From: an uncultured bacterium
GTDB lineage: Bacteria > CSSED10-310 > CAZUFC01
Assembly: GCA_964619725.1 (NCBI GenBank)
Contig: CAZUFC010000076.1
Location: 22,290 to 40,696 of the forward strand
DNA: 18,407 bases
Direction: 5' to 3'
Below the pieces are notes generated by a model. The model was given only the letters and a program-made list of their open reading frames with translations. It made no database searches and was not told the origin of the DNA. The position numbers and the translations under genes were made by a program. Shown here in pieces: positions 1 through 15,176 of the stretch (within the stretch, counting starts at the first letter, position 1; every line of letters starts with the position of its first letter).

Positions 1-2110
1 TCAGTGTGGGCGAACGGGTCGGACTGCATGTTGAGGTAGGCGTCAGTGTGGGCGTCCTGGTTGGGGTGTTAGTTACCGTGTAGCTGGCGGTCGGCGTTCG
101 GGTCGGGGTTCTGGTAGGAGTCAGCGTCGACGTCGGCGTTCGAGTCGGGGTTCTGGTCGGACTGCATGTCGCCGTAGGCGTCCGCGTCGGGCTTGAAGTC
201 GGAGTTCGTGTAGGACTCAACGTCGATGTCGCGGTCTTCGTCGGCGTCAGGGTCGGACTGCATGTCGACGTCGGCGTGCGCGTGGGACTTGACGTCGCCG
301 TCGCGGTCAGGGTTGGAGTTCGGGTGGGACTCAACGTCGACGTCGCGGTCTTCGTCGGCGTCCGGGTCGGACTGCATGTCGACGTCGGCGTGCGCGTGGG
401 ACTTGACGTCGCCGTCGCGGTCAGGGTTGGAGTTCGGGTGGGACTCAACGTCGACGTCGCGGTCTTCGTCGGCGTCCGGGTCGGACTGCACGTCGCCGTC
501 GGCGTGCGCGTAGGGCTTGACGTTGCCGTCGGGGTCAAGGTCGGCGTCAGCGTAACGGTCTGGGTCATCGTCGGCGTTAAAGTGGGAGTTTGGGTCGGCG
601 TTGGAGGTATCCAGTTGCCGTATTCTATTTCAACGTATTCCGAGGGGTCCAGATCAAGCATTACTTCCAGGCCGGTAGTGCATTGCCATCCCGGTTCCAG
701 AGTTTCACGCAGATAATATATCCCGACGGGTACGGCGCTGAAGGTATAACTGCCGTTATCCGTCGAGCCGCTTTCATATATGGTCGTTCCATTTTCTTCA
801 TAGAGGGTAAACCACCAGTCGTCCAGAAACGGTTCGCCCAGGTCGCGCATGCCGTCGCCGTCCAGATCGTGAAATTTTTTGACGGTTACGGCCGGCAGGG
901 GGATGTTGCCGAAATTGACCACCAGGGATTCCCCTGTAACCAAATCAACCGTCTGCGATACAGGCGTCGTATTTTTCCAGTCAGAAGGCAATTCTTCCAT
1001 CAACGTATATTGCCCGGGGGTCAGGCTGTCGAAAATGGCGTTGCCGTTGCTGTTGGTCGTCTTCGTATCGATTAAAATGCTGTTCTGATACAGATAAATC
1101 GTCCAGTTTTCGAGGTTTTCTTCATTGTCCTGCTGAACGCCGTCCATATTGATGTCCAGAAACTTGTGCCCTATAATCGTTCCTTCATACAACCATTCTC
1201 CGATGGCTTCCGAAAAGACGTTTCCCGTAACCGGTTCCGCAAGAACAAGTTTCTGCTTACCCGGATCAACGGGCACAAAGATAGTGCCCCGAGGCAGGGA
1301 AAAAGTCGCCTCCGCGGTTATATTCGCCAATCCGGGATTCCCGGTGGTATTCGTTACAGTGAAAAAAGCTTCGCCGTATTCGTTCGTTATCACTGTGGAA
1401 TCGCTTAATACTCCGAAATCCGTACTTAAATCGACTTCAAGCCCTTCCACAGGCTGCAGGTTCTGGGTAGCTTCCACAGTATAAGGAATAACGGTTTCCG
1501 GCAGCGTCACCGTGCCGTATGCCGGAGATATCGATAAATCAGGAGGGTCCTGAGGCAATACGCAGGGATCAGGAACAGAATCGATTATCTCCTGGGTTCG
1601 TTGCTTTACCTCCGGATAGGAATCATCCACAATGAAACCGTCTGAAAAATACCACACCGCAGCCTGTCTCGCCGCAGCTTCCATATTGGTCAATTCCGGT
1701 CCCGGAGGCAGGGAATTCAGTATCCAGGTTATCTGGCAGGGCGTCGGTCCTGCGCTGGTGAACTGGTCGCCGATATATATCGGGTTCAATAAATCTATGC
1801 AGAATGAGTGCACCAGATCGCCCGTGTCCGGCGGTATCCGCACGTTTATCACGCCAGAGTAAATCGATTCTCCGCCGTACGCATTGCCGGAAATATACAT
1901 GCCCGGATAAATGCTTTCAATTTCTCCCGTTACAGGGTCCCGGTCGCCGTTGGTGAGACTCATTACCGAGCCTTTGGACAAACCCGCCGCATTCGGCAGA
2001 CCCATGGTTCCCGTTGAGGAGGGCTCCTTCGAACGACGGAAAGTCGCTCCCGCATCAGCGCTGCAAAGGACGATCGCCAATAAAAAAATGAGAAAAATTT
2101 TACTCTTCAT
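1..2110 (-). CDS. Secreted thioester-domain (TED/TQXA-like) surface protein with two SdrD-B/CnaB-like domains and a Pro/Thr-rich stalk; 3' end truncated by the window edge
   Basis: Hand translation from ATG at 2110 (GGGGGA upstream) is open for 703 codons to the edge. It gives signal peptide [24 protein letters not shown] (Cys104, 1799-1801), [10 protein letters not shown] (1640-1669), KQKLV (Gln286, 1253-1255), two repeats of the form KFxDxxxDG...YxLxE...(F/Y)GN, then a TPT-rich repeat region. Absent from the ORF track, probably because it has no stop codon in the window. Confidence 0.9.
213..491 (-). repeat. 114-bp (38-aa) near-perfect tandem repeat, about 2.4 copies, inside the Pro/Thr stalk (stalk spans about 1-607)
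   Basis: GGTCGGACTGCA recurs at 251, 365 and 479 (period 114). The unit translates as [38 protein letters not shown]. Confidence 0.9.
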
Positions 2111-2177: not shown

Positions 2178-2207
2178 ATTTTAATATTTCACAGCCGGGA
2201 ATGTCAA
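2178..2207 (-). promoter_or_regulatory. Putative sigma70 promoter for the thioester-domain gene
   Basis: Minus strand reads TTGACA-N18-TAAAAT, about 70 bp upstream of the ATG at 2110. Confidence 0.55.
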
Positions 2208-5742: not shown

Positions 5743-8427
5743 ATGTTTTTAAGGAAATCGGGAAAAGGATCGCCGCCGTCTGAAGCCGGTTACAGGTTTC
5801 GAGGCAGCCGAGTGATCATTTTTCTATTGTCGTTCATCTTTCTTTGGGGGACTTTTTCTTTGACGGTTTACGCGCATTATTGTCCGAAGACTTTTACTTA
5901 TGATGAACACGGCGAGCCTGCGAACGAGGTGTTGCTGACGGGAAGTTTTACAGACTGGGCTTCTGAGCCCCCGGATGCTTATGAGATGGAAGACGACGAT
6001 AATGACGGCATATGGGAAGTAACGGTTGAATTGGATATTGGGACTTATCTTTACAAGTTTATAGTGGATGGAGAGTGGGTGCAGGACCCTGACAACAGCG
6101 ATGAGAGTCCGGACGGACACGGCGGTTATAATTCCGTAGTGCACGTTGAATGCCCCTATCCGCGATTTCTGATAACCTCATATAACGTGGACGACGATCA
6201 GCGAAGATGTGAAGCGACATTGGAGATGCAGCCTGCGGGCGCTGATCTTGACGGGACAACGGTAACGGTGACGCTGGATCACGAACCGGCTCCGGGCACA
6301 TGGGACGTAAACGGCAACGCGGTGACGCTGGACGTCGGTTCTCTGGCCGACGGCATTCATGACGTAAGGGTTTACGGAGAGGACCTGGACGGCCGGCCAG
6401 TGGAGCCTGCGATACTAAAAGCCTACATCAACGTTTCAGAAGATTGGCATGATGCTACGCTCTATTTTACAATGACGGATAGATTTTTAAACGGCGATTC
6501 CGGCAATGATGCGCCGCTGAACGACATTCCCTGGCAGACGAATTACCAGGGCGGCGATTTTCAGGGCATAATCGACAAGATAGAAGATGGATACTTCGAA
6601 GACCTGGGGGTCAACGCTTTATGGATATCCTGGCCGGGCGACAATGCCGAGAATCCGGGAGGCGGGTACTACGGGAACACTACTGAATGCGGTCTGCAGT
6701 GGGGCGACCCCGTGGACTGGATATGGGTTGAATTCAGCGCTTTTCATGGTTACTGGCCTGCGAAACTTTATGAATCGGAACAGCGTTTCGGCACGATGAG
6801 CGAATTGAACGAACTTGTAGACAAGGCTCACGAACGGGGCATTCGCGTGCTTCTGGACCTGGTAATCAATCATGTTCATGAAGAATCCCCTTATTTTTCC
6901 GGGAGCCCGGATTATTTTTTCCATTATCCCATGCAGATATGCCAGGAGACCTGGTGGCAATTCCCCATCACATGCTGGTTCACGGCTTTTCTGCCTGATC
7001 TGAATTTCTCGCAGCAGGGCGTCATTCGAGATTTTCTGAATATGGCGGTCTGGTGGGCCAAACAGACGGGTTGCGACGGTTTTCGCGTTGATGCTTTGAA
7101 ACACGTGGAATTTGATTTCATAACCTCTTTAAGGTCCCGCATGGAAATGGAGATGGAAGGTACGGGAGTTGATTTTTATCTAGTGGGCGAAACTTTTACG
7201 GGGAATCCCGATGATATCGTTTATTTCCTGGGCGATGATCTGGTGCATGGACAGTTCGATTTCCCCCTTAACCTGCAGATATTAAAGGCCATGGCGTGGC
7301 AGGAGATAGGAATGGACGCCATGCATTCCTCCGGTCGTGAGTTTTATGACTTATACGGCGATGATGCCCTCATGTCGACCTTCATCGGGAACCATGACAT
7401 TGCCCGTTTCATCAGTGCAGCGGCAGGCGATCTGTTTTGTCCGGCCTGGGATAACATGAGTCACGTATCTCAAGGCTGGCTGAATCCGCCGAATACGCCT
7501 GACGAATACTGGCCCTATCAGAAACTACAGTTGGCATTGACCTATATTATGACTTTACCGGGCATACCCCTTATTTATTACGGCGATGAATTCGGTCTGC
7601 CGGGAGCCGGGGACCCCGACAACAGAAGAATGATGAAGTTCGGGGGAGATTTGAACAGCAATCAGCAGCAAACTCTCGATTATACGAAGATGATAGGAAA
7701 ACTGCGGCGTGATCATCCGGCTCTGCGAGCGGATTCCTGGCCTTACACGCTTCACGGAGAATGGTCGTTCCTGGTTTATTTCCGATATCATTCCGATGAG
7801 CGAATTATCGTAGCGCTAAACAGCAGCGATCAAAGCAGACAGCAAACAGTAGGTCTGACGGGGACCGGACTGGACGACGGAGACGTTTTAACGGAACTGA
7901 TCCGCGGCGGAACGGTAACGGTTCAGGACAACAGCATCACGGTAAGCGTTCCCGGCAGAAGCGCATCCATATACTCAAAAATGTACGTCTCTCCCACGCC
8001 CACTCCTACCGGTACCGGAACCTACAACCCGGACACGCGCACGCCTACGCGCACAGTCACTCCTACGCCTACGGGAGGTCCGACCGATATCACCATTGAC
8101 GTTCAGACGAGCCAGGCTTATTACGAAACCGGCGACCGTTTCTGGTTGAAGGTGTTGATAGAAAATGGAGGTCCGGACATTATTACGGATATGTATGTTA
8201 TGCTGGATGTTTACGGTGAATTTTTCTTTCATCCCTCCTGGACTTCAGAAATGGAGTATGAAATTCGCGATCTCCTGGCGAACTGGAGTTACGAATTCAA
8301 GCTTTTAGACTTCTTCTGGCCTGAAACGGGCGGTACCGCTGACGGAATCGTATTCTGGGCTATACTGAGCGACCACGAGACCCTTAACGGGCTCTGCAGC
8401 GATCAAACTGCTTTCGGATGGAGATAA
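5743..8427 (+). CDS. Secreted GH13 alpha-amylase-family glycoside hydrolase with N-terminal CBM48/E-set-like domain, Pro/Thr linker and unassigned C-terminal domain
   Basis: AAGGAGG RBS and hydrophobic signal segment. E-set/CBM motif LTGSFTDW...YLYKFIVDGEW..DP. GH13 conserved regions DRFLNGD, GGDFQGI, HGYW, DLVINH, GFRVDALKH, VGE, IGNHD and PGIPLIYYGDEFG. Linker at about 7990-8085. Confidence 0.92.
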   Translation: MFLRKSGKGSPPSEAGYRFRGSRVIIFLLSFIFLWGTFSLTVYAHYCPKTFTYDEHGEPANEVLLTGSFTDWASEPPDAYEMEDDDNDGIWEVTVELDIGTYLYKFIVDGEWVQDPDNSDESPDGHGGYNSVVHVECPYPRFLITSYNVDDDQRRCEATLEMQPAGADLDGTTVTVTLDHEPAPGTWDVNGNAVTLDVGSLADGIHDVRVYGEDLDGRPVEPAILKAYINVSEDWHDATLYFTMTDRFLNGDSGNDAPLNDIPWQTNYQGGDFQGIIDKIEDGYFEDLGVNALWISWPGDNAENPGGGYYGNTTECGLQWGDPVDWIWVEFSAFHGYWPAKLYESEQRFGTMSELNELVDKAHERGIRVLLDLVINHVHEESPYFSGSPDYFFHYPMQICQETWWQFPITCWFTAFLPDLNFSQQGVIRDFLNMAVWWAKQTGCDGFRVDALKHVEFDFITSLRSRMEMEMEGTGVDFYLVGETFTGNPDDIVYFLGDDLVHGQFDFPLNLQILKAMAWQEIGMDAMHSSGREFYDLYGDDALMSTFIGNHDIARFISAAAGDLFCPAWDNMSHVSQGWLNPPNTPDEYWPYQKLQLALTYIMTLPGIPLIYYGDEFGLPGAGDPDNRRMMKFGGDLNSNQQQTLDYTKMIGKLRRDHPALRADSWPYTLHGEWSFLVYFRYHSDERIIVALNSSDQSRQQTVGLTGTGLDDGDVLTELIRGGTVTVQDNSITVSVPGRSASIYSKMYVSPTPTPTGTGTYNPDTRTPTRTVTPTPTGGPTDITIDVQTSQAYYETGDRFWLKVLIENGGPDIITDMYVMLDVYGEFFFHPSWTSEMEYEIRDLLANWSYEFKLLDFFWPETGGTADGIVFWAILSDHETLNGLCSDQTAFGWR

Positions 8428-8431
8428 AACA

Positions 8432-9367
8432 ATGAATCGGAACAATCGAACAGCAAAGGTTATTTTAGTATTGAGTTTAGTAATTTTGACGAATGCCGTC
8501 GGCTACGGCGGCGACAGAGAGCTGATGAACGTCTGGCACATACCGACCAATGAGGAACCGCCTACGGTAAACATGCGCAATCCCGTTCATCCGACCGCTT
8601 CTGATGATGCCGTTTATTTCTACGTCGGCGGATGGCCTTCAGGAACCATTTCGACTGCGACGCTCCATTACAGATTCGACGAAGAGGAATGGTCGACAGC
8701 AGATTTCGCTTATGATTCGACTCAGGAAAACGACAACGAATATTTCATCGTTAATATTGAAGGTCCTTTTTCCGACGGTTCTGTTTGCGAATATTACATT
8801 CAAACGGACAATCCCGAATACGATACGACCTACGTCTACGGAACAGACGACACGACGAATACCACAGCGGATCAGAATACGGCCATGGAATCTCCCTTTT
8901 CCTTCACCATCGGCTCCGACGTCTCCCCTACTCCCACTCGAACGCCTACCCAGAACCGTACCGCCACTCCCACCCGAACGCCTACTCAAGCTCCTACATA
9001 TACGCCAACGGCTGAAGCCGGAGATACAGAAGTAGAAATATTCACCAATCAATCCGTGTATCGCGGAGGCGACCTTTTCCGGTTATTGATAAGAATCCAC
9101 CATCCCGGAAACACAATAGAGGTAGATCAGTATGCCGCATTGAATTTCGGCTCTGAATTCTGGTACTGGCCCAATTGGGAATACGGAGTTCCAAGCTCAG
9201 TCGCCAGAACGCTGGAACCGCGCCATGATTACGAAGATATTTTGCTTATGTTCGGATGGCCTTACGGCGCCGGAAGAATCGAAGGTATCCGCTTTTACGG
9301 AGCGCTTACGCAACACGATTCGTACGAGTTGATAGACTGGGACGTCTGCGAATGCTCGGCTGAATAA
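8432..9367 (+). CDS. Secreted protein: Ig-like/possible carbohydrate-binding N-terminal domain, Pro/Thr linker, and a C-terminal domain homologous to that of the upstream amylase
   Basis: Starts 4 bp after the amylase stop. Signal peptide, acidic aromatic-rich beta-type domain (WHIP...MRNP...EYYI), TPT linker at about 8924-9010, C-terminal domain 9023-9364. Confidence 0.8.
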   Translation: MNRNNRTAKVILVLSLVILTNAVGYGGDRELMNVWHIPTNEEPPTVNMRNPVHPTASDDAVYFYVGGWPSGTISTATLHYRFDEEEWSTADFAYDSTQENDNEYFIVNIEGPFSDGSVCEYYIQTDNPEYDTTYVYGTDDTTNTTADQNTAMESPFSFTIGSDVSPTPTRTPTQNRTATPTRTPTQAPTYTPTAEAGDTEVEIFTNQSVYRGGDLFRLLIRIHHPGNTIEVDQYAALNFGSEFWYWPNWEYGVPSSVARTLEPRHDYEDILLMFGWPYGAGRIEGIRFYGALTQHDSYELIDWDVCECSAE

Positions 9368-10916: not shown

Positions 10917-11313
10917 TCTATTTTCCTTCACTGGTAATAGTTCTTTGATCGTTCAGAAGCCATACCTTCATTAATGAATTATATATACAATTATGCAATC
11001 TTCAACCTTCCGCATTCATCCGGCCAAGCCACGGCCAGGCAGTCTGCCCTACAGAGCTGCTGCCGTCCGGCAAACTTCGGTTTATGAGGGGCATGCATGC
11101 ATAGCCCGCATTTCTCATACAAAACCTGTTACGAAGGTCCATATCCCCGCGGATTCAAGCGATGAAAGAGGCCGGGCGACAGGATCAATTGACACAGGCT
11201 TTTTATTTTGTTTTTATTCAGGATTGTGTTATGGCGTTCAGCGACTTACGCTGTTTTCAGGATTAGTTTTTGTATTTTCGTGACATTTCATGTGCAATTA
11301 TCGGAGGATCAGT

Positions 11314-13293
11314 ATGAATCGAATTAAGTTTTCAACTGTTTTGGCGGCGCTGAGCTTGTTATTCGCATTGCCGGCCGGCGCGTTGGATGATGAAGAGATA
11401 TGGGATATGGTGAAGCAGGCAAAGGAAGAGGAGAAATATCCTGATGCCGGAGCGGTGATTATTTTCGACCGGTATGAATCTTATTATAAGGAGACGGGAT
11501 CGGGAACGACTTATAATGAGATGATAATATTGATAAGAAAAGACGAAGCGGCGGTCCGATATCCTTCGATTCATTATGATTTTAATCCTCGCACTTCCGA
11601 CACGACCATTATGGAGGTAAAGGCATACCGTAGTGACGGCGAGACGGTCGATGAGTCGCCGCCTGATCGATTCAGAACCCTTCCGGCTCCGACTCATTCC
11701 ATGTTCTGGAACTTCATCCGCCGCATAGCGGCCGTTCCCCGGCTGCATGAAGGGGATGCGCTGTATTATAAAGTCCGGCGCAAGGGATTGAATTTAACTT
11801 ATCTGGATGAGCCGGAAGAGCAAAATGAGTATATTCCGCCGCAGGAAGGTCATTTTTTCGATACGGTTTACTTTGAAGACCGACTCCCGATAGTCAGGAA
11901 ACTGTATATTCTGCATTGTCCCCGCAGCCGGCCTGTACAGTATAAAGTGCTGAACGGAACGGTGCGGCCCAGCGTCGAATTCGAACCGGAAGGATTTTTA
12001 TACAAATGGGAACGGGAAGATGTTCCTGCTTTTGAAGGGGAACCGCGCGGCGCATCCTTCAGCGAATCGGCCTGCAAACTGGTTATGGCCTCTCTGGAAA
12101 ACTGGGAAGCCAAATCCCGCTGGGCTTATGAAGTCAATGAGCCGCAATTCGTCATAAGCGATGAGATGCAGAAAAAGGTAGATGAACTGATTCAAGATGC
12201 TGAGACGGACTATGAAAAAATGTTTAATTTGCTGCACTGGGTAGCCGAAGAAGTTCGTTATCTGGGAACGGACATGGGCGAAGGCGAAGGATACACGGTG
12301 CATCGAACGGATGAAATATTTTACGAACGCGCCGGGGTTTGCAAAGACAAGGCCGCTGTTCTGGTTTCGATGCTGAGAGCGGCGGGTTTCGATGCTTTTT
12401 TTATTTTGACGCTCGCCATGGAAAAGGCTGCAGATGTTCCTGCAGACCAGTTTAACCACGGCGTCGTGGGCGTCAGACATAAAGACGGTTCCTGGACATA
12501 TCTGGACCCGACCTGGGCGCCCAAAAACAGACCGCTCTTCAATCCCCTCGAACAGGAACAACCCATTCTTACAGCAACGCCGGAAGGAGAAGACCTGACT
12601 CATATACCCTACAGTCCGCCGGAAGATAATCCCTGGAATATTTCAGCTCAAACCGTAATTTCTCTCCACCAACCCATGCACGCTTCCCTGCACTTCAGCG
12701 GCGACGGTTTCCCAGACGGAAGAATGAGGTCCAATATTGCCTACAGGCTTAAAGAAGAACGCCCCCAATACTTCGGCATGCTGGCGCAGAATATCTCTCC
12801 CTTCGCACGTGTTATTGATTTCGATCACGGAGACTTCCTGGATTTCAATACCATGATGACGCTTGAACTGGAAATCGAAGCCGATAATTACGCCATACAT
12901 CTCGATGACCGCATCTTCTTCATTCCTCTCCTCTCCAAACCCATCTTCAATCGCGCCTATGAATCGGATTACCTCTTCGCCGCAGACCCAGAAAAACGTA
13001 AATATGATCTCACCGTTTCCTGCACCAGAGCGCTTCACTTTCAGGAGAAAATTAAATTGCCCAGGGGATTCGAAGTGGAAGAGGTCCCGGAAAAAATTGA
13101 AATGGACGGTCCCGCAGCTTCGTTACATTACGAAGTCACTCAGAAAGGTCGAAACGTCTCGATAGACAGAAAAGTAACCATTAAAAAACGTTGGATACCG
13201 CCCGATGAATACGGACAATTCAAGGAAATTGTGGATAAAGTGAAAGAAATTTCGGAAACTTACCTGTCGGCAGTGAAAGGGGGATCAAAATGA
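11314..13293 (+). CDS. Exported DUF3857 + transglutaminase-like domain protein with intact Cys-His-Asp triad
   Basis: ATG at 11314 after GGAGG, followed by a signal peptide. Motifs WVAEEVRY, GVCKDKA (Cys), FNHG (His) and YLDPT (Asp). C-terminal IKLPRGFEV...IPPDEY region is typical of this architecture. Confidence 0.85.
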   Translation: MNRIKFSTVLAALSLLFALPAGALDDEEIWDMVKQAKEEEKYPDAGAVIIFDRYESYYKETGSGTTYNEMIILIRKDEAAVRYPSIHYDFNPRTSDTTIMEVKAYRSDGETVDESPPDRFRTLPAPTHSMFWNFIRRIAAVPRLHEGDALYYKVRRKGLNLTYLDEPEEQNEYIPPQEGHFFDTVYFEDRLPIVRKLYILHCPRSRPVQYKVLNGTVRPSVEFEPEGFLYKWEREDVPAFEGEPRGASFSESACKLVMASLENWEAKSRWAYEVNEPQFVISDEMQKKVDELIQDAETDYEKMFNLLHWVAEEVRYLGTDMGEGEGYTVHRTDEIFYERAGVCKDKAAVLVSMLRAAGFDAFFILTLAMEKAADVPADQFNHGVVGVRHKDGSWTYLDPTWAPKNRPLFNPLEQEQPILTATPEGEDLTHIPYSPPEDNPWNISAQTVISLHQPMHASLHFSGDGFPDGRMRSNIAYRLKEERPQYFGMLAQNISPFARVIDFDHGDFLDFNTMMTLELEIEADNYAIHLDDRIFFIPLLSKPIFNRAYESDYLFAADPEKRKYDLTVSCTRALHFQEKIKLPRGFEVEEVPEKIEMDGPAASLHYEVTQKGRNVSIDRKVTIKKRWIPPDEYGQFKEIVDKVKEISETYLSAVKGGSK

Positions 13294-15176
13294 AGTTCAA
13301 ACTTGTTCAGATTCCTGCGCTCAAGCATACGACCATCGTGCTCTTTTCGTTTTTTCTGGTTTGCTGTATTTTTTCGGGTTATTCCAGCGCTGAGAATACG
13401 CACGAAAAACATCCCCATGCAATAATTCTCACGGATAAACATGATTTCATCCTGGACGATCAGGGATTATTGACGGAAACCTGGCGCAGAAGAGTCCAGG
13501 TGTTCAGCGAAAATGGGATAGATATGTTTGCGGACGTCAGAGTATTCTATAATTCATTGGAGGAAAGCCTCGACGTCGTTGAAGCCTTTACTTTGAACAG
13601 CCGGGGCGAAAAAATACCCGTACCCGACACCGCGATAAACAGGACGCTTCCGTTCGATCTGGCGCCTTATCCCGCTTACGGAGATTTCCGGATACTGACC
13701 GTATCCTTTGTCGGCATCGACAAAGGGTCGATTCTTGAAATGAAATTGGAGCGCACCCGGTTGAAGGAACCGGATTACCCGTGGTGGGAAAAACAAATTC
13801 ACATCGGCGATGAGACTTTTATCGAATCCCTGGATATTTCCGTGGTCTGTCCTCCTGGTTCATTCCTCGCTTCTGAATTGATAGGCAAAAAACTTGACCC
13901 GGCAAAATCAGAAAGTGACGGTCTGGAAGTCCTGACCTGGCGGTTTGAAGATATCGAACCCATTCTCTACGAATCAAATACCGGCGGCTATTATGATCTT
14001 ATGCCCGTTCTCTGCCTTTCAACATGCCCATCATGGGAAAAGGCTGCGGCTGAACTGAAAAATCGTTTCTACGCGGGCATGTCTGAATCGACCGAGTTGA
14101 AGGAAAAAGCGATTGCTCTGACGGAAGAAGCTCTCGGTCCTGCCGCCGTCATCAATGCCCTTTATGATTATTGCCGGGATACTTTCAGAAGCATCGACAG
14201 GGCGCCGCACTGTTTCCATTACAAAACCGAATCACTGGAAAATATTCTCAACAGAAACTATGGACACAAGCTCGATCAGGCTCTCCTGTTCTCCGCTATG
14301 CTGAAAGAATGCGGGGGCGCGGTTTCACTAATTGCGTCATCAGGGGCAAAACATTTTCCAAACAATGTTGCCGGTCTATCCTTTTTCGATGACATTCTTA
14401 TACAGGTTCAACTGAAAGATGAGAAAACTTTGCTGGACTTTGAAAGCAGTCCCGGGTTCTGGAATCCTTTCAAACATCCGGATCGTAAATTCCTGGCCGT
14501 TCTCGACGACGGATTGCAGTGGAAAGAGACACCCGGATGCTCGCCCGAATCCAACCATGCAGAACTTGAACTGGATATCACTATCGACCGGGATAAAAAT
14601 GTTACAGGCTCTTTCTATATTGTCCTTCAGGGCTTCTTCTCCCCCTTCCGCCAAATCAGAAAAGACACTCAATCCTTTATCAAAGATGAACTTAATTCCC
14701 TGTTCGATGAAGCGGAAACGGAAGAATATCGCATACTCTGGAATAAAATTGAAAAATGCAGCATCGCCGGAAAGTTTAAGGCAAAAATGAAAACAGAATC
14801 CTTGAATGAAGACTATGAAATACAGCGCTTTCCCGTTTTACCTGTCGTGGCGGAATCCCTGCCGGAACCCCTGCCGGTCGAAAGAACCCACCCTTTCCAA
14901 TTGAATTGTTGCTTTACCGAAAAAACGCGCCTGGCGATAAAACTGCCCCAAAATTGGACAATAGCGAAACCGCCTAAAAATGTCTCATTTGAAAACGACT
15001 TCGTGAAAATCGAAACATCATTTGATCCCAATAGCGATAAAAAAATATGGGAACGAACCATGTCGATTCGTCAGGACGTTGTTCCATCTGAGGACTATAA
15101 TGAATATCTTGTCTTTAACGCCTTTTTCAGAAAACTCGATTATAACGGCTTAATCTATAAACTGGAGAATGATTGA
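13290..15176 (+). CDS. Exported DUF3857/transglutaminase-fold paralogue lacking the catalytic Cys and His
   Basis: ATGA overlap with the upstream gene, signal peptide and the same architecture (LSTCPSWE, IKLPQNW, VPSEDY). GHKLDQA replaces GVCKDKA and FDD replaces FNH. Confidence 0.78.
   Translation: MKFKLVQIPALKHTTIVLFSFFLVCCIFSGYSSAENTHEKHPHAIILTDKHDFILDDQGLLTETWRRRVQVFSENGIDMFADVRVFYNSLEESLDVVEAFTLNSRGEKIPVPDTAINRTLPFDLAPYPAYGDFRILTVSFVGIDKGSILEMKLERTRLKEPDYPWWEKQIHIGDETFIESLDISVVCPPGSFLASELIGKKLDPAKSESDGLEVLTWRFEDIEPILYESNTGGYYDLMPVLCLSTCPSWEKAAAELKNRFYAGMSESTELKEKAIALTEEALGPAAVINALYDYCRDTFRSIDRAPHCFHYKTESLENILNRNYGHKLDQALLFSAMLKECGGAVSLIASSGAKHFPNNVAGLSFFDDILIQVQLKDEKTLLDFESSPGFWNPFKHPDRKFLAVLDDGLQWKETPGCSPESNHAELELDITIDRDKNVTGSFYIVLQGFFSPFRQIRKDTQSFIKDELNSLFDEAETEEYRILWNKIEKCSIAGKFKAKMKTESLNEDYEIQRFPVLPVVAESLPEPLPVERTHPFQLNCCFTEKTRLAIKLPQNWTIAKPPKNVSFENDFVKIETSFDPNSDKKIWERTMSIRQDVVPSEDYNEYLVFNAFFRKLDYNGLIYKLEND

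Follow-up and report, generated by a model that had tools for sequence, protein, structure and literature searches.

Thioester domains (TEDs) have been placed in Gram-positive bacteria (PMC9210967, PMC8286594, PMC10619420), and a 2026 paper that places them in Firmicutes and Actinobacteria calls their biological significance unclear (PMC13685950). Two classes are distinguished. Class I TEDs, such as SfbI (5A0L), CpTIE (5A0G), PnTIE (5A0N), Cpa (2XI9), and FNE (5DCQ), come from Gram-positive hosts; the bonding glutamines are Gln267 in CpTIE, Gln261 in SfbI, and Gln247 in PnTIE, and fibrinogen is given as the sole known target (PMC4450167). Class II TEDs, such as BaTIE (6FWV), EfmTIE86-TED (6FWY), and SaTIE-TED (6FX6), lack the additional helix of class I and have a β-sandwich insert that provides the glutamine on a returning hairpin, with isopeptide-type stalk domains downstream and 195 (BaTIE) or 204 (EfmTIE86) residues between Cys and Gln (PMC6194298). 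The cysteine stands in a [YFL]C-hydrophobic-hydrophilic motif (PMC6194298), and the helix motif TQxxhW is described as not fully conserved even among known TEDs. TIEpLS20 (p34), encoded by the Bacillus subtilis plasmid pLS20, has a class II TED on a stalk without LPXTG, is sortase-independent, and is a conjugation adhesin for which a role in joining cells to each other, as opposed to attachment to an animal host, has been proposed (PMC8092201). SdrD_B/SpaA CnaB-like isopeptide domains have already been reported from Gram-negative phyla (PMC12617251); Figure S7 of the same paper draws TED-bearing adhesins across groups and may bear on the novelty of the present case. In the literature searched, which mostly excluded subscription journals, no paper announced in its title or the opening of its abstract a TED from Proteobacteria, Gram-negatives, or otherwise outside Gram-positive bacteria, and the only text combining thioester domains and Big_1 was a review on another subject.

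The window (the whole stretch of 18,407 nucleotides analysed here) encodes on its minus strand a protein that is probably a TIE-type fibrillar adhesin with a class II thioester domain. Its frame has a start codon at window position 2110 and exits through the left edge, leaving 703 codons inside, which is why the gene is missing from the list of closed ORFs, as an earlier note on this DNA had remarked. If open ends are allowed, the frame appears as 2..2110 (703 aa); the absence is thus a window-edge effect, and the notion of a hidden CDS as a special feature was rejected. The span singled out in the earlier note (1241-1810) corresponds to residues 101-290, and the motifs named there, FCID (Cys104), the Gln149 motif, and KQKLV (Gln286), are found in the stated order on the minus strand, which holds all the features of the protein given below. 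They follow a probable Sec signal peptide (residues 1 to ~20, 2051..2110), as the note had claimed, with a basic start and a hydrophobic stretch at residues 5-23 (mean hydropathy 2.25), a call made from hydropathy, with the cleavage site placed by eye. A sigma-70-like promoter match (2178..2207, minus strand, 11/12) lies upstream of the start codon, such sites occurring three times against a mean of 2.4 in shuffles. The upstream intergenic region gave nothing credible against Rfam, its two matches both being far under the gathering score, and no RNA set is among the datasets listed as matching the locus DNA. A second sample of the same study also yielded contigs over the codons of Cys104, Gln149, and Gln286, and there they agree letter for letter.

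The TED head (residues 61-181, 1568..1930) is modelled by AlphaFold2 as a β-barrel part with three helices, at a pLDDT of 93.7 (89.4 for residues 21-310, with an alignment of 95 sequences). Cys104 (1799..1801), the predicted thioester cysteine, lies in FCID, which fits the published cysteine motif. The TQxxhW motif takes the form RQAAVW (residues 148-153, 1652..1669), with Gln149 at 1664-1666 and Trp153 at 1652-1654; it sits in a modelled helix, and the family replaces the Thr of the motif by Arg or Val. Covariation of residues 103 and 105 with 148 and 152 agrees with a Cys strand that packs on the QxxxW helix. Among 48,161 solved chains, the head-only model has eight matches at Z>=5, and every one is a TED. 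The class II chains come first (6FWV, Z 9.2, rmsd 3.0 Å; 6FWY, Z 8.3, 2.8 Å; 6FX6, Z 7.8, 3.0 Å), sharing the head fold over 110-115 residues at 2.8-3.0 Å; the class I TEDs follow at Z 6.0-7.0, with the same head fold and Cys and Gln in register, and the best non-TED reaches Z 3.3. For the full model, the best Foldseek matches are also class II TEDs, 6FWV (E 4.9e-10) and 6FWY (E 1.3e-9), and the best VIA match is 6FWV (Z 14.1, model residues 40-288). The structure prediction proposed in the earlier note hence returns a TED fold.

Sequence identity to the solved class II TEDs is 14-19%. The Pfam family TED (PF08341, gathering cut-off 22) is exceeded by two copies in the genome search (24.9 and 24.8 bits) and by a 290-aa fragment of the protein (22.4 bits), but the 703-aa chain scores 20.9 bits, so that the Pfam match suggested in the earlier note is borderline. 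The TQXA model named with it was not matched above its threshold (TIGR03934, 19 bits against 30.4), nor was there any match to PF20610 (TED_2) at E<=0.1. A search of the PDB with the single sequence gave intimin only (E 0.0013) and no TED, and fold and profile searches were therefore needed. The head spans 121 model residues, compared with 125-140 in class II and 148-168 in class I chains. It is thus as short as class II heads and without the extra class I helix α0.

Between helix 3 (about residues 166-178) and the hairpin that returns into the head (residues ~273-294, 1229..1294) there is an insert that class I TEDs lack, an Ig β-sandwich of the intimin/invasin Big_1 type (residues ~187-308, 1187..1552). 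The hairpin is carried by the insert itself, and class II chains align over both lobes. Against intimin and invasin Big_1 structures (6TPL, 1F00, 1CWV) the insert gives Z 11.9-13.1, rmsd 2.1-2.3 Å, and identity <=30%, the best being intimin D0-D1 (6TPL; Z 13.1, rmsd 2.1, 95 aligned, 30% identity). Of the 23 sequences in alignment A2, 21 match Pfam Big_1 (PF02369) at E<=0.001, and the family profile, run against solved structures, retrieves intimin (E 4.3e-21) and also invasin. It finds BaTIE (6FWV) as well, the best stretch lying mainly in the stalk, and has no match to 6FWY or 6FX6 at E<=10. Unlike in the solved class II TEDs, the insert is recognisable as intimin-type in both sequence and structure. 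Atlas neighbours bearing TEDa_beta (PF26764, the Pfam family of class II inserts) score 0.81-0.83, a lead only. In intimin D0/D1 and in invasin, Big_1 domains are plain stalk repeats, whereas here one copy is nested in the TED and has an extra hairpin with the predicted reactive Gln. The earlier note had described a β-rich segment of about 130 aa before the second Gln: the length holds (137 residues from Gln149 to Gln286), but the segment includes helix 3, and its β-rich part is confined to residues ~187-285. The identity of the insert goes beyond that note, as do the probable disulfide, the isopeptide triads, the paralogue, and the NCBI thioester names of relatives discussed below.

Gln286 (in KQKLV, 1253-1255) is the predicted thioester glutamine. 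When the full model is aligned to class I TEDs, the insert is passed over and the match continues behind it, ending with model residue 274 on residue 275 of 5A0G, 275 on 270 of 5A0L, and 274 on 255 of 5A0N. Since model residue 266 is Gln286, these end-points put it on Gln267 of CpTIE, Gln261 of SfbI, and Gln247 of PnTIE if the last 8-9 residues are gap-free; the argument is one of alignment end-points. The Cys-Gln spacing is 182 here (family median 192), within the 170-205 of class II TEDs. The whole-domain rmsd to class II TEDs is 8.9-10.5 Å, so the lobes are placed differently from theirs or the hinge of the model is wrong. Covariation between head and hairpin is not enriched (9 of the top 150 pairs, against 3,050/28,441 of all pairs), and is uninformative because invariant columns cannot covary. 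One may ask if Cys104 could instead pair with Gln149, the Ig domain being an ordinary stalk domain after a compact head, given that Gln149 is equally conserved and adjoins the Cys strand in the covariation analysis. We regard this as very improbable: in solved TEDs, as described, that Gln sits in the TQxxhW helix and is unneeded for the bond, and the class I alignments, which extend past the insert, make Gln286 the counterpart of the bonding Gln. The pairing of Cys104 with Gln286 proposed in the earlier note is thus supported by the predicted fold, the register at the chain end, and conservation, and the class II-like assignment made there by the fold, the register with solved thioester Gln residues, and conservation. 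We consider a Cys104-Gln286 thioester very likely.

A full HMMER scan retrieves 326 clusters (50% identity) at E<=0.001. Conservation was assessed in 169 homologues, of which two are not TED matches, while most other misses are fragments. Cys is kept at the Cys104 column in 165 of the 167 homologues with a residue there, Gln at Gln149 in 167/168, Trp at Trp153 in 168/169, and Gln at Gln286 in 159/161; Cys and the distal Gln occur jointly in 156 of the 159 homologues covering both columns. These four columns (in the order Trp153, Gln149, Cys104, Gln286) are the most conserved of the family. All four residues are present in 69 of 70 further homologues, the remaining one stopping short of the Gln column. 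The loose Cys-motif plus QxxW pattern alone occurs in 4 of 12,029 ORFs of the genome, against 0-3 in 10 shuffles, and the pattern alone is weak evidence; the family conservation and the fold are not chance. A paralogue (L002, G000:C63:12786-15950, minus strand, 1054 aa) is 59% identical over the domain and has the same head, insert, and stalk, but its C-terminal half differs, consisting of an unrelated region of ~500 aa.

The head and its surroundings contain two more cysteines, Cys125 (1736-1738) and Cys183 (1562-1564), which span 1562..1738 and, from their co-occurrence and covariation, probably form a structural disulfide, an addition relative to the solved class II TEDs. Both or neither are present in 150 of 167 homologues (a raw count, uncorrected for kinship), and the pair ranks 4 of 28,441 in the covariation analysis. 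In 24/156 homologues the equivalent of Cys104 is the sole cysteine, and the cysteine count is odd in 136/156. The simplest reading is that Cys125 and Cys183 are probably bonded to each other and Cys104 is left free. These data bear on the possibility of a TED fold without a reactive bond, binding non-covalently, with Cys104 free or disulfide-bonded to Cys125 or Cys183. Three cysteines in the domain, an inferred export into an oxidising periplasm, and deviating motif residues (Arg for Thr before Gln149, Lys for a hydrophobic residue before Gln286) would all be in keeping with it. Yet the co-occurrence of Cys125 and Cys183, the homologues where Cys104 stands alone, and the odd counts argue against it, as does the near-invariance of Gln286 when thioesters are stated not to be structural determinants of the fold (PMC4450167). 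We hold it to be improbable, and retain the thioester. As a separate observation, a member from another family of the same phylum (L030:1-2433, minus strand, G005) shows YCWD around its thioester Cys and has an additional Cys within QxxxW.

Downstream of the TED there are two SdrD_B/SpaA-like stalk domains, at 902..1180 and 611..892, the second recognised as a further SdrD_B stretch (69 bits for Pfam SdrD_B on the protein, cut-off 29.7). Both have a predicted Lys/Glu/Asn isopeptide triad, Lys316/Glu372/Asn402 in the first domain (spacing 56 and 30) and Lys412/Glu469/Asn499 in the second (57 and 30), which matches the 59 and 30 of the predicted triad in a published SdrD_B example (PMC12617251). 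The first triad is kept in 45 of 141 homologues. By homology, both domains may be expected to form isopeptide bonds. The order of class II TED followed by isopeptide domains parallels that of BaTIE (PMC6194298). Compared with Gram-positive TIE proteins in general, the stalk after the TED is shared, its bonds being predicted; here, however, there is no LPXTG tail, the 90.9% complete genome gave no sortase match, and the host is not a monoderm.

The stalk is followed by a Pro/Thr-rich repeat spacer (2..607) that leaves the window into a 100-N scaffold gap, located just past the left edge and within the repeat. Past the gap, a single frame contains the same repeat, a region of ~210 aa, and a C-terminal domain of 125 aa (L003:1066-1440, minus strand, approximate). 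The frames on either side of the gap are taken as one gene because the repeat text matches on both sides and because homologue P0002, 64% identical, has the same 125-aa domain at its end (E 1.4e-51). The ~210-aa region matches DUF4394 (31.8 bits) and is probably a β-propeller. Neither Pfam nor NCBIfam has a match for the 125-aa domain, whose neighbours in the atlas (best 0.90) are clusters without a name. The same domain also ends an unrelated, secreted-looking protein of 505 aa in this genome (G000:C1:186738-188255, plus strand, E 2e-61); it may be a second anchoring module.

The host genome (9.17 Mb, 90.9% complete, 6.5% contamination) encodes LpxC (E 1e-86), BamA, six Omp85 matches, and seven secretins: the host is a diderm. 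The earlier note had left its taxonomy to be determined. The best named match of its RecA is candidate division CSSED10-310 (77%), and as this is a single marker the assignment is graded as probable only. This phylum has 14 genomes in the collection searched; PMC8248873 describes it as a lineage that is sister to Acidobacteriota and predicted to be Gram-negative. Matching DNA occurs in microbial-mat metagenomes of one study. The genome, 90.9% complete, has no match to the sortase family PF04203. It has one exosortase-family gene (L028:837-2025, minus strand), whose closest families, archaeosortase B and exosortase H, are matched below threshold; this gene overlaps that of a second membrane protein without family match.

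The C-terminal part has neither LPXTG nor a hydrophobic or transmembrane tail, its hydropathy peaking at 0.99, and no sorting family, known anchor, or outer-membrane export signal was recognised in it. Nor does the protein end in the ~115-aa domain carried by 215 other ORFs of the genome. As no anchor is recognised, the main rival interpretation is a released or periplasmic protein that does form the thioester and cross-links the cell's own envelope or the mat matrix, or traps incoming proteins. Besides these negative results and the lack of a sortase match, the unrelated C-termini of relatives, the paralogue included, are compatible with it. The layout, however, with a distal TED, an isopeptide stalk, and a long spacer, is that of a tethered adhesin. 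Some relatives also have probable sorting tails, LPxTG-like in 7/169 and IPTL-CTERM-like in P0004 (E 0.07, under the cut-off), and TIEpLS20 is an adhesin described without a sortase or known anchor (PMC8092201). We therefore judge a released or periplasmic protein unlikely and keep to a surface adhesin; that it is displayed beyond the outer membrane and held there by its unnamed C-terminal region can only be inferred, and so can its target.

NCBI already names three relatives (P0006, P0013, P0308) "Cys-Gln thioester bond-forming surface protein". Named relatives are mostly from Chloroflexota, with Binatia and Deltaproteobacteria also present. A pattern-limited scan of GTDB gives 22 loci from 309 candidate stretches, 19 in Chloroflexota and 3 in large sulfur bacteria (Albibeggiatoa, Thiomargarita). 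With a head-only profile, and counting the centre genome each time, matches occur in 2 of the 14 genomes of the host phylum, in 26 of a sample of 201 genomes from the class to which one Anaerolineae host belongs, and in 4 of 55 genomes in the family of Albibeggiatoa. By rough patterns, the C-termini of the 169 relatives are LPxTG-like in 7, of a short YLP type in 41, IPTL/PEP-like in 3, and other or cut in 118; the YLP-type tail we take to be typical of Chloroflexota. Each of the five further hosts tested has a sortase-family gene. The remark of the earlier note that the surrounding genes show no sign of a sortase-type host thus holds for the host genome, with its LpxC and BamA, but not for the family, and a restriction of the family to sortase-less hosts was rejected on the five hosts and the seven LPxTG-like tails. 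Given variable C-termini and hosts of both envelope kinds, the module would therefore seem to cross envelope types on interchangeable anchors. In a 42-row tree, which leaves out P0124, the upstream paralogue of L023, and L025, the query groups with P0002, P0004, and the paralogue; deep support is weak, and hence no donor or direction of transfer is claimed. Among the large sulfur bacteria, a Thiomargarita contig has two TED genes in tandem (L023:227-4245, plus strand). Albibeggiatoa supplies two complete TED proteins, both with an acidic tail and no LPxTG. Although they are Gammaproteobacteria, the three TED-bearing large sulfur bacteria (G041, G043, G045) each encode one sortase-family protein.

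The gene stands alone, its neighbours coding for a radical SAM protein, a dehydrogenase, an amylase, a fumarase-type lyase, and others. As these are unrelated, a conjugation or pilus locus was rejected. This contrasts with TIEpLS20, which is Gram-positive and plasmid-borne in a conjugation operon (PMC8092201); here one finds a lone gene among housekeeping genes. Two further features of the window may be recorded. The amylase and the next secreted protein share a C-terminal unnamed domain of ~115 aa after a Pro/Thr linker (8080-8427 and 9020-9367, plus strand, approximate), whose profile is matched by 215 ORFs in the genome, C-terminally in 209. At 11290-15176 (plus strand), DUF3857-transglutaminase-DUF3858 genes stand in tandem; Transglut_core matches the first well (48.6 bits) and the second weakly (15.4 bits), which suggests an active and a degenerate partner.

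On the adhesin interpretation, the signal peptide would export the chain, and the hairpin from the inserted Big_1 domain would thread back into the folding head, where Gln286 would meet Cys104. Their condensation would release ammonia and yield a buried thioester with Gln149 and Trp153 packed alongside, and Cys125-Cys183 would form a separate disulfide. Two isopeptide-locked Ig domains and the long Pro/Thr spacer would keep the tip away from the cell. Upon partner binding, an amine would attack the thioester and leave a covalent amide link; the likeliest source is a Lys in a protein of the matrix or of an adjacent cell. The TED itself appears to be of a known kind, with class II well supported; what seems new is the type of insert, the probable disulfide, and the envelope of the host.

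The surprise is limited, as some relatives are already automatically annotated, Gram-negative isopeptide stalks are known, and a sortase-independent class II TIE protein has been described. It is conceivable, though rather doubtful, that the family forms a separate class II lineage with a captured intimin-type Big_1, the slipknot having arisen twice or originating here, and that, on interchangeable anchors, it attaches monoderm and diderm bacteria that form mats, granules, and filaments (CSSED10-310, Binatia, large sulfur bacteria, Anaerolineae) by covalent bonds to matrix or nearby cells, in the present case by an undescribed route of export and anchoring. The 326 clusters make up a compact, well-modelled family that provides a handle on the origin of the class II insert, and the bond and its target can be tested cheaply. 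In conclusion, a full TIE-style protein in a mat bacterium with an outer membrane suggests that covalent adhesion is a tool of microbes in general, directed at other microbes or at matrix.
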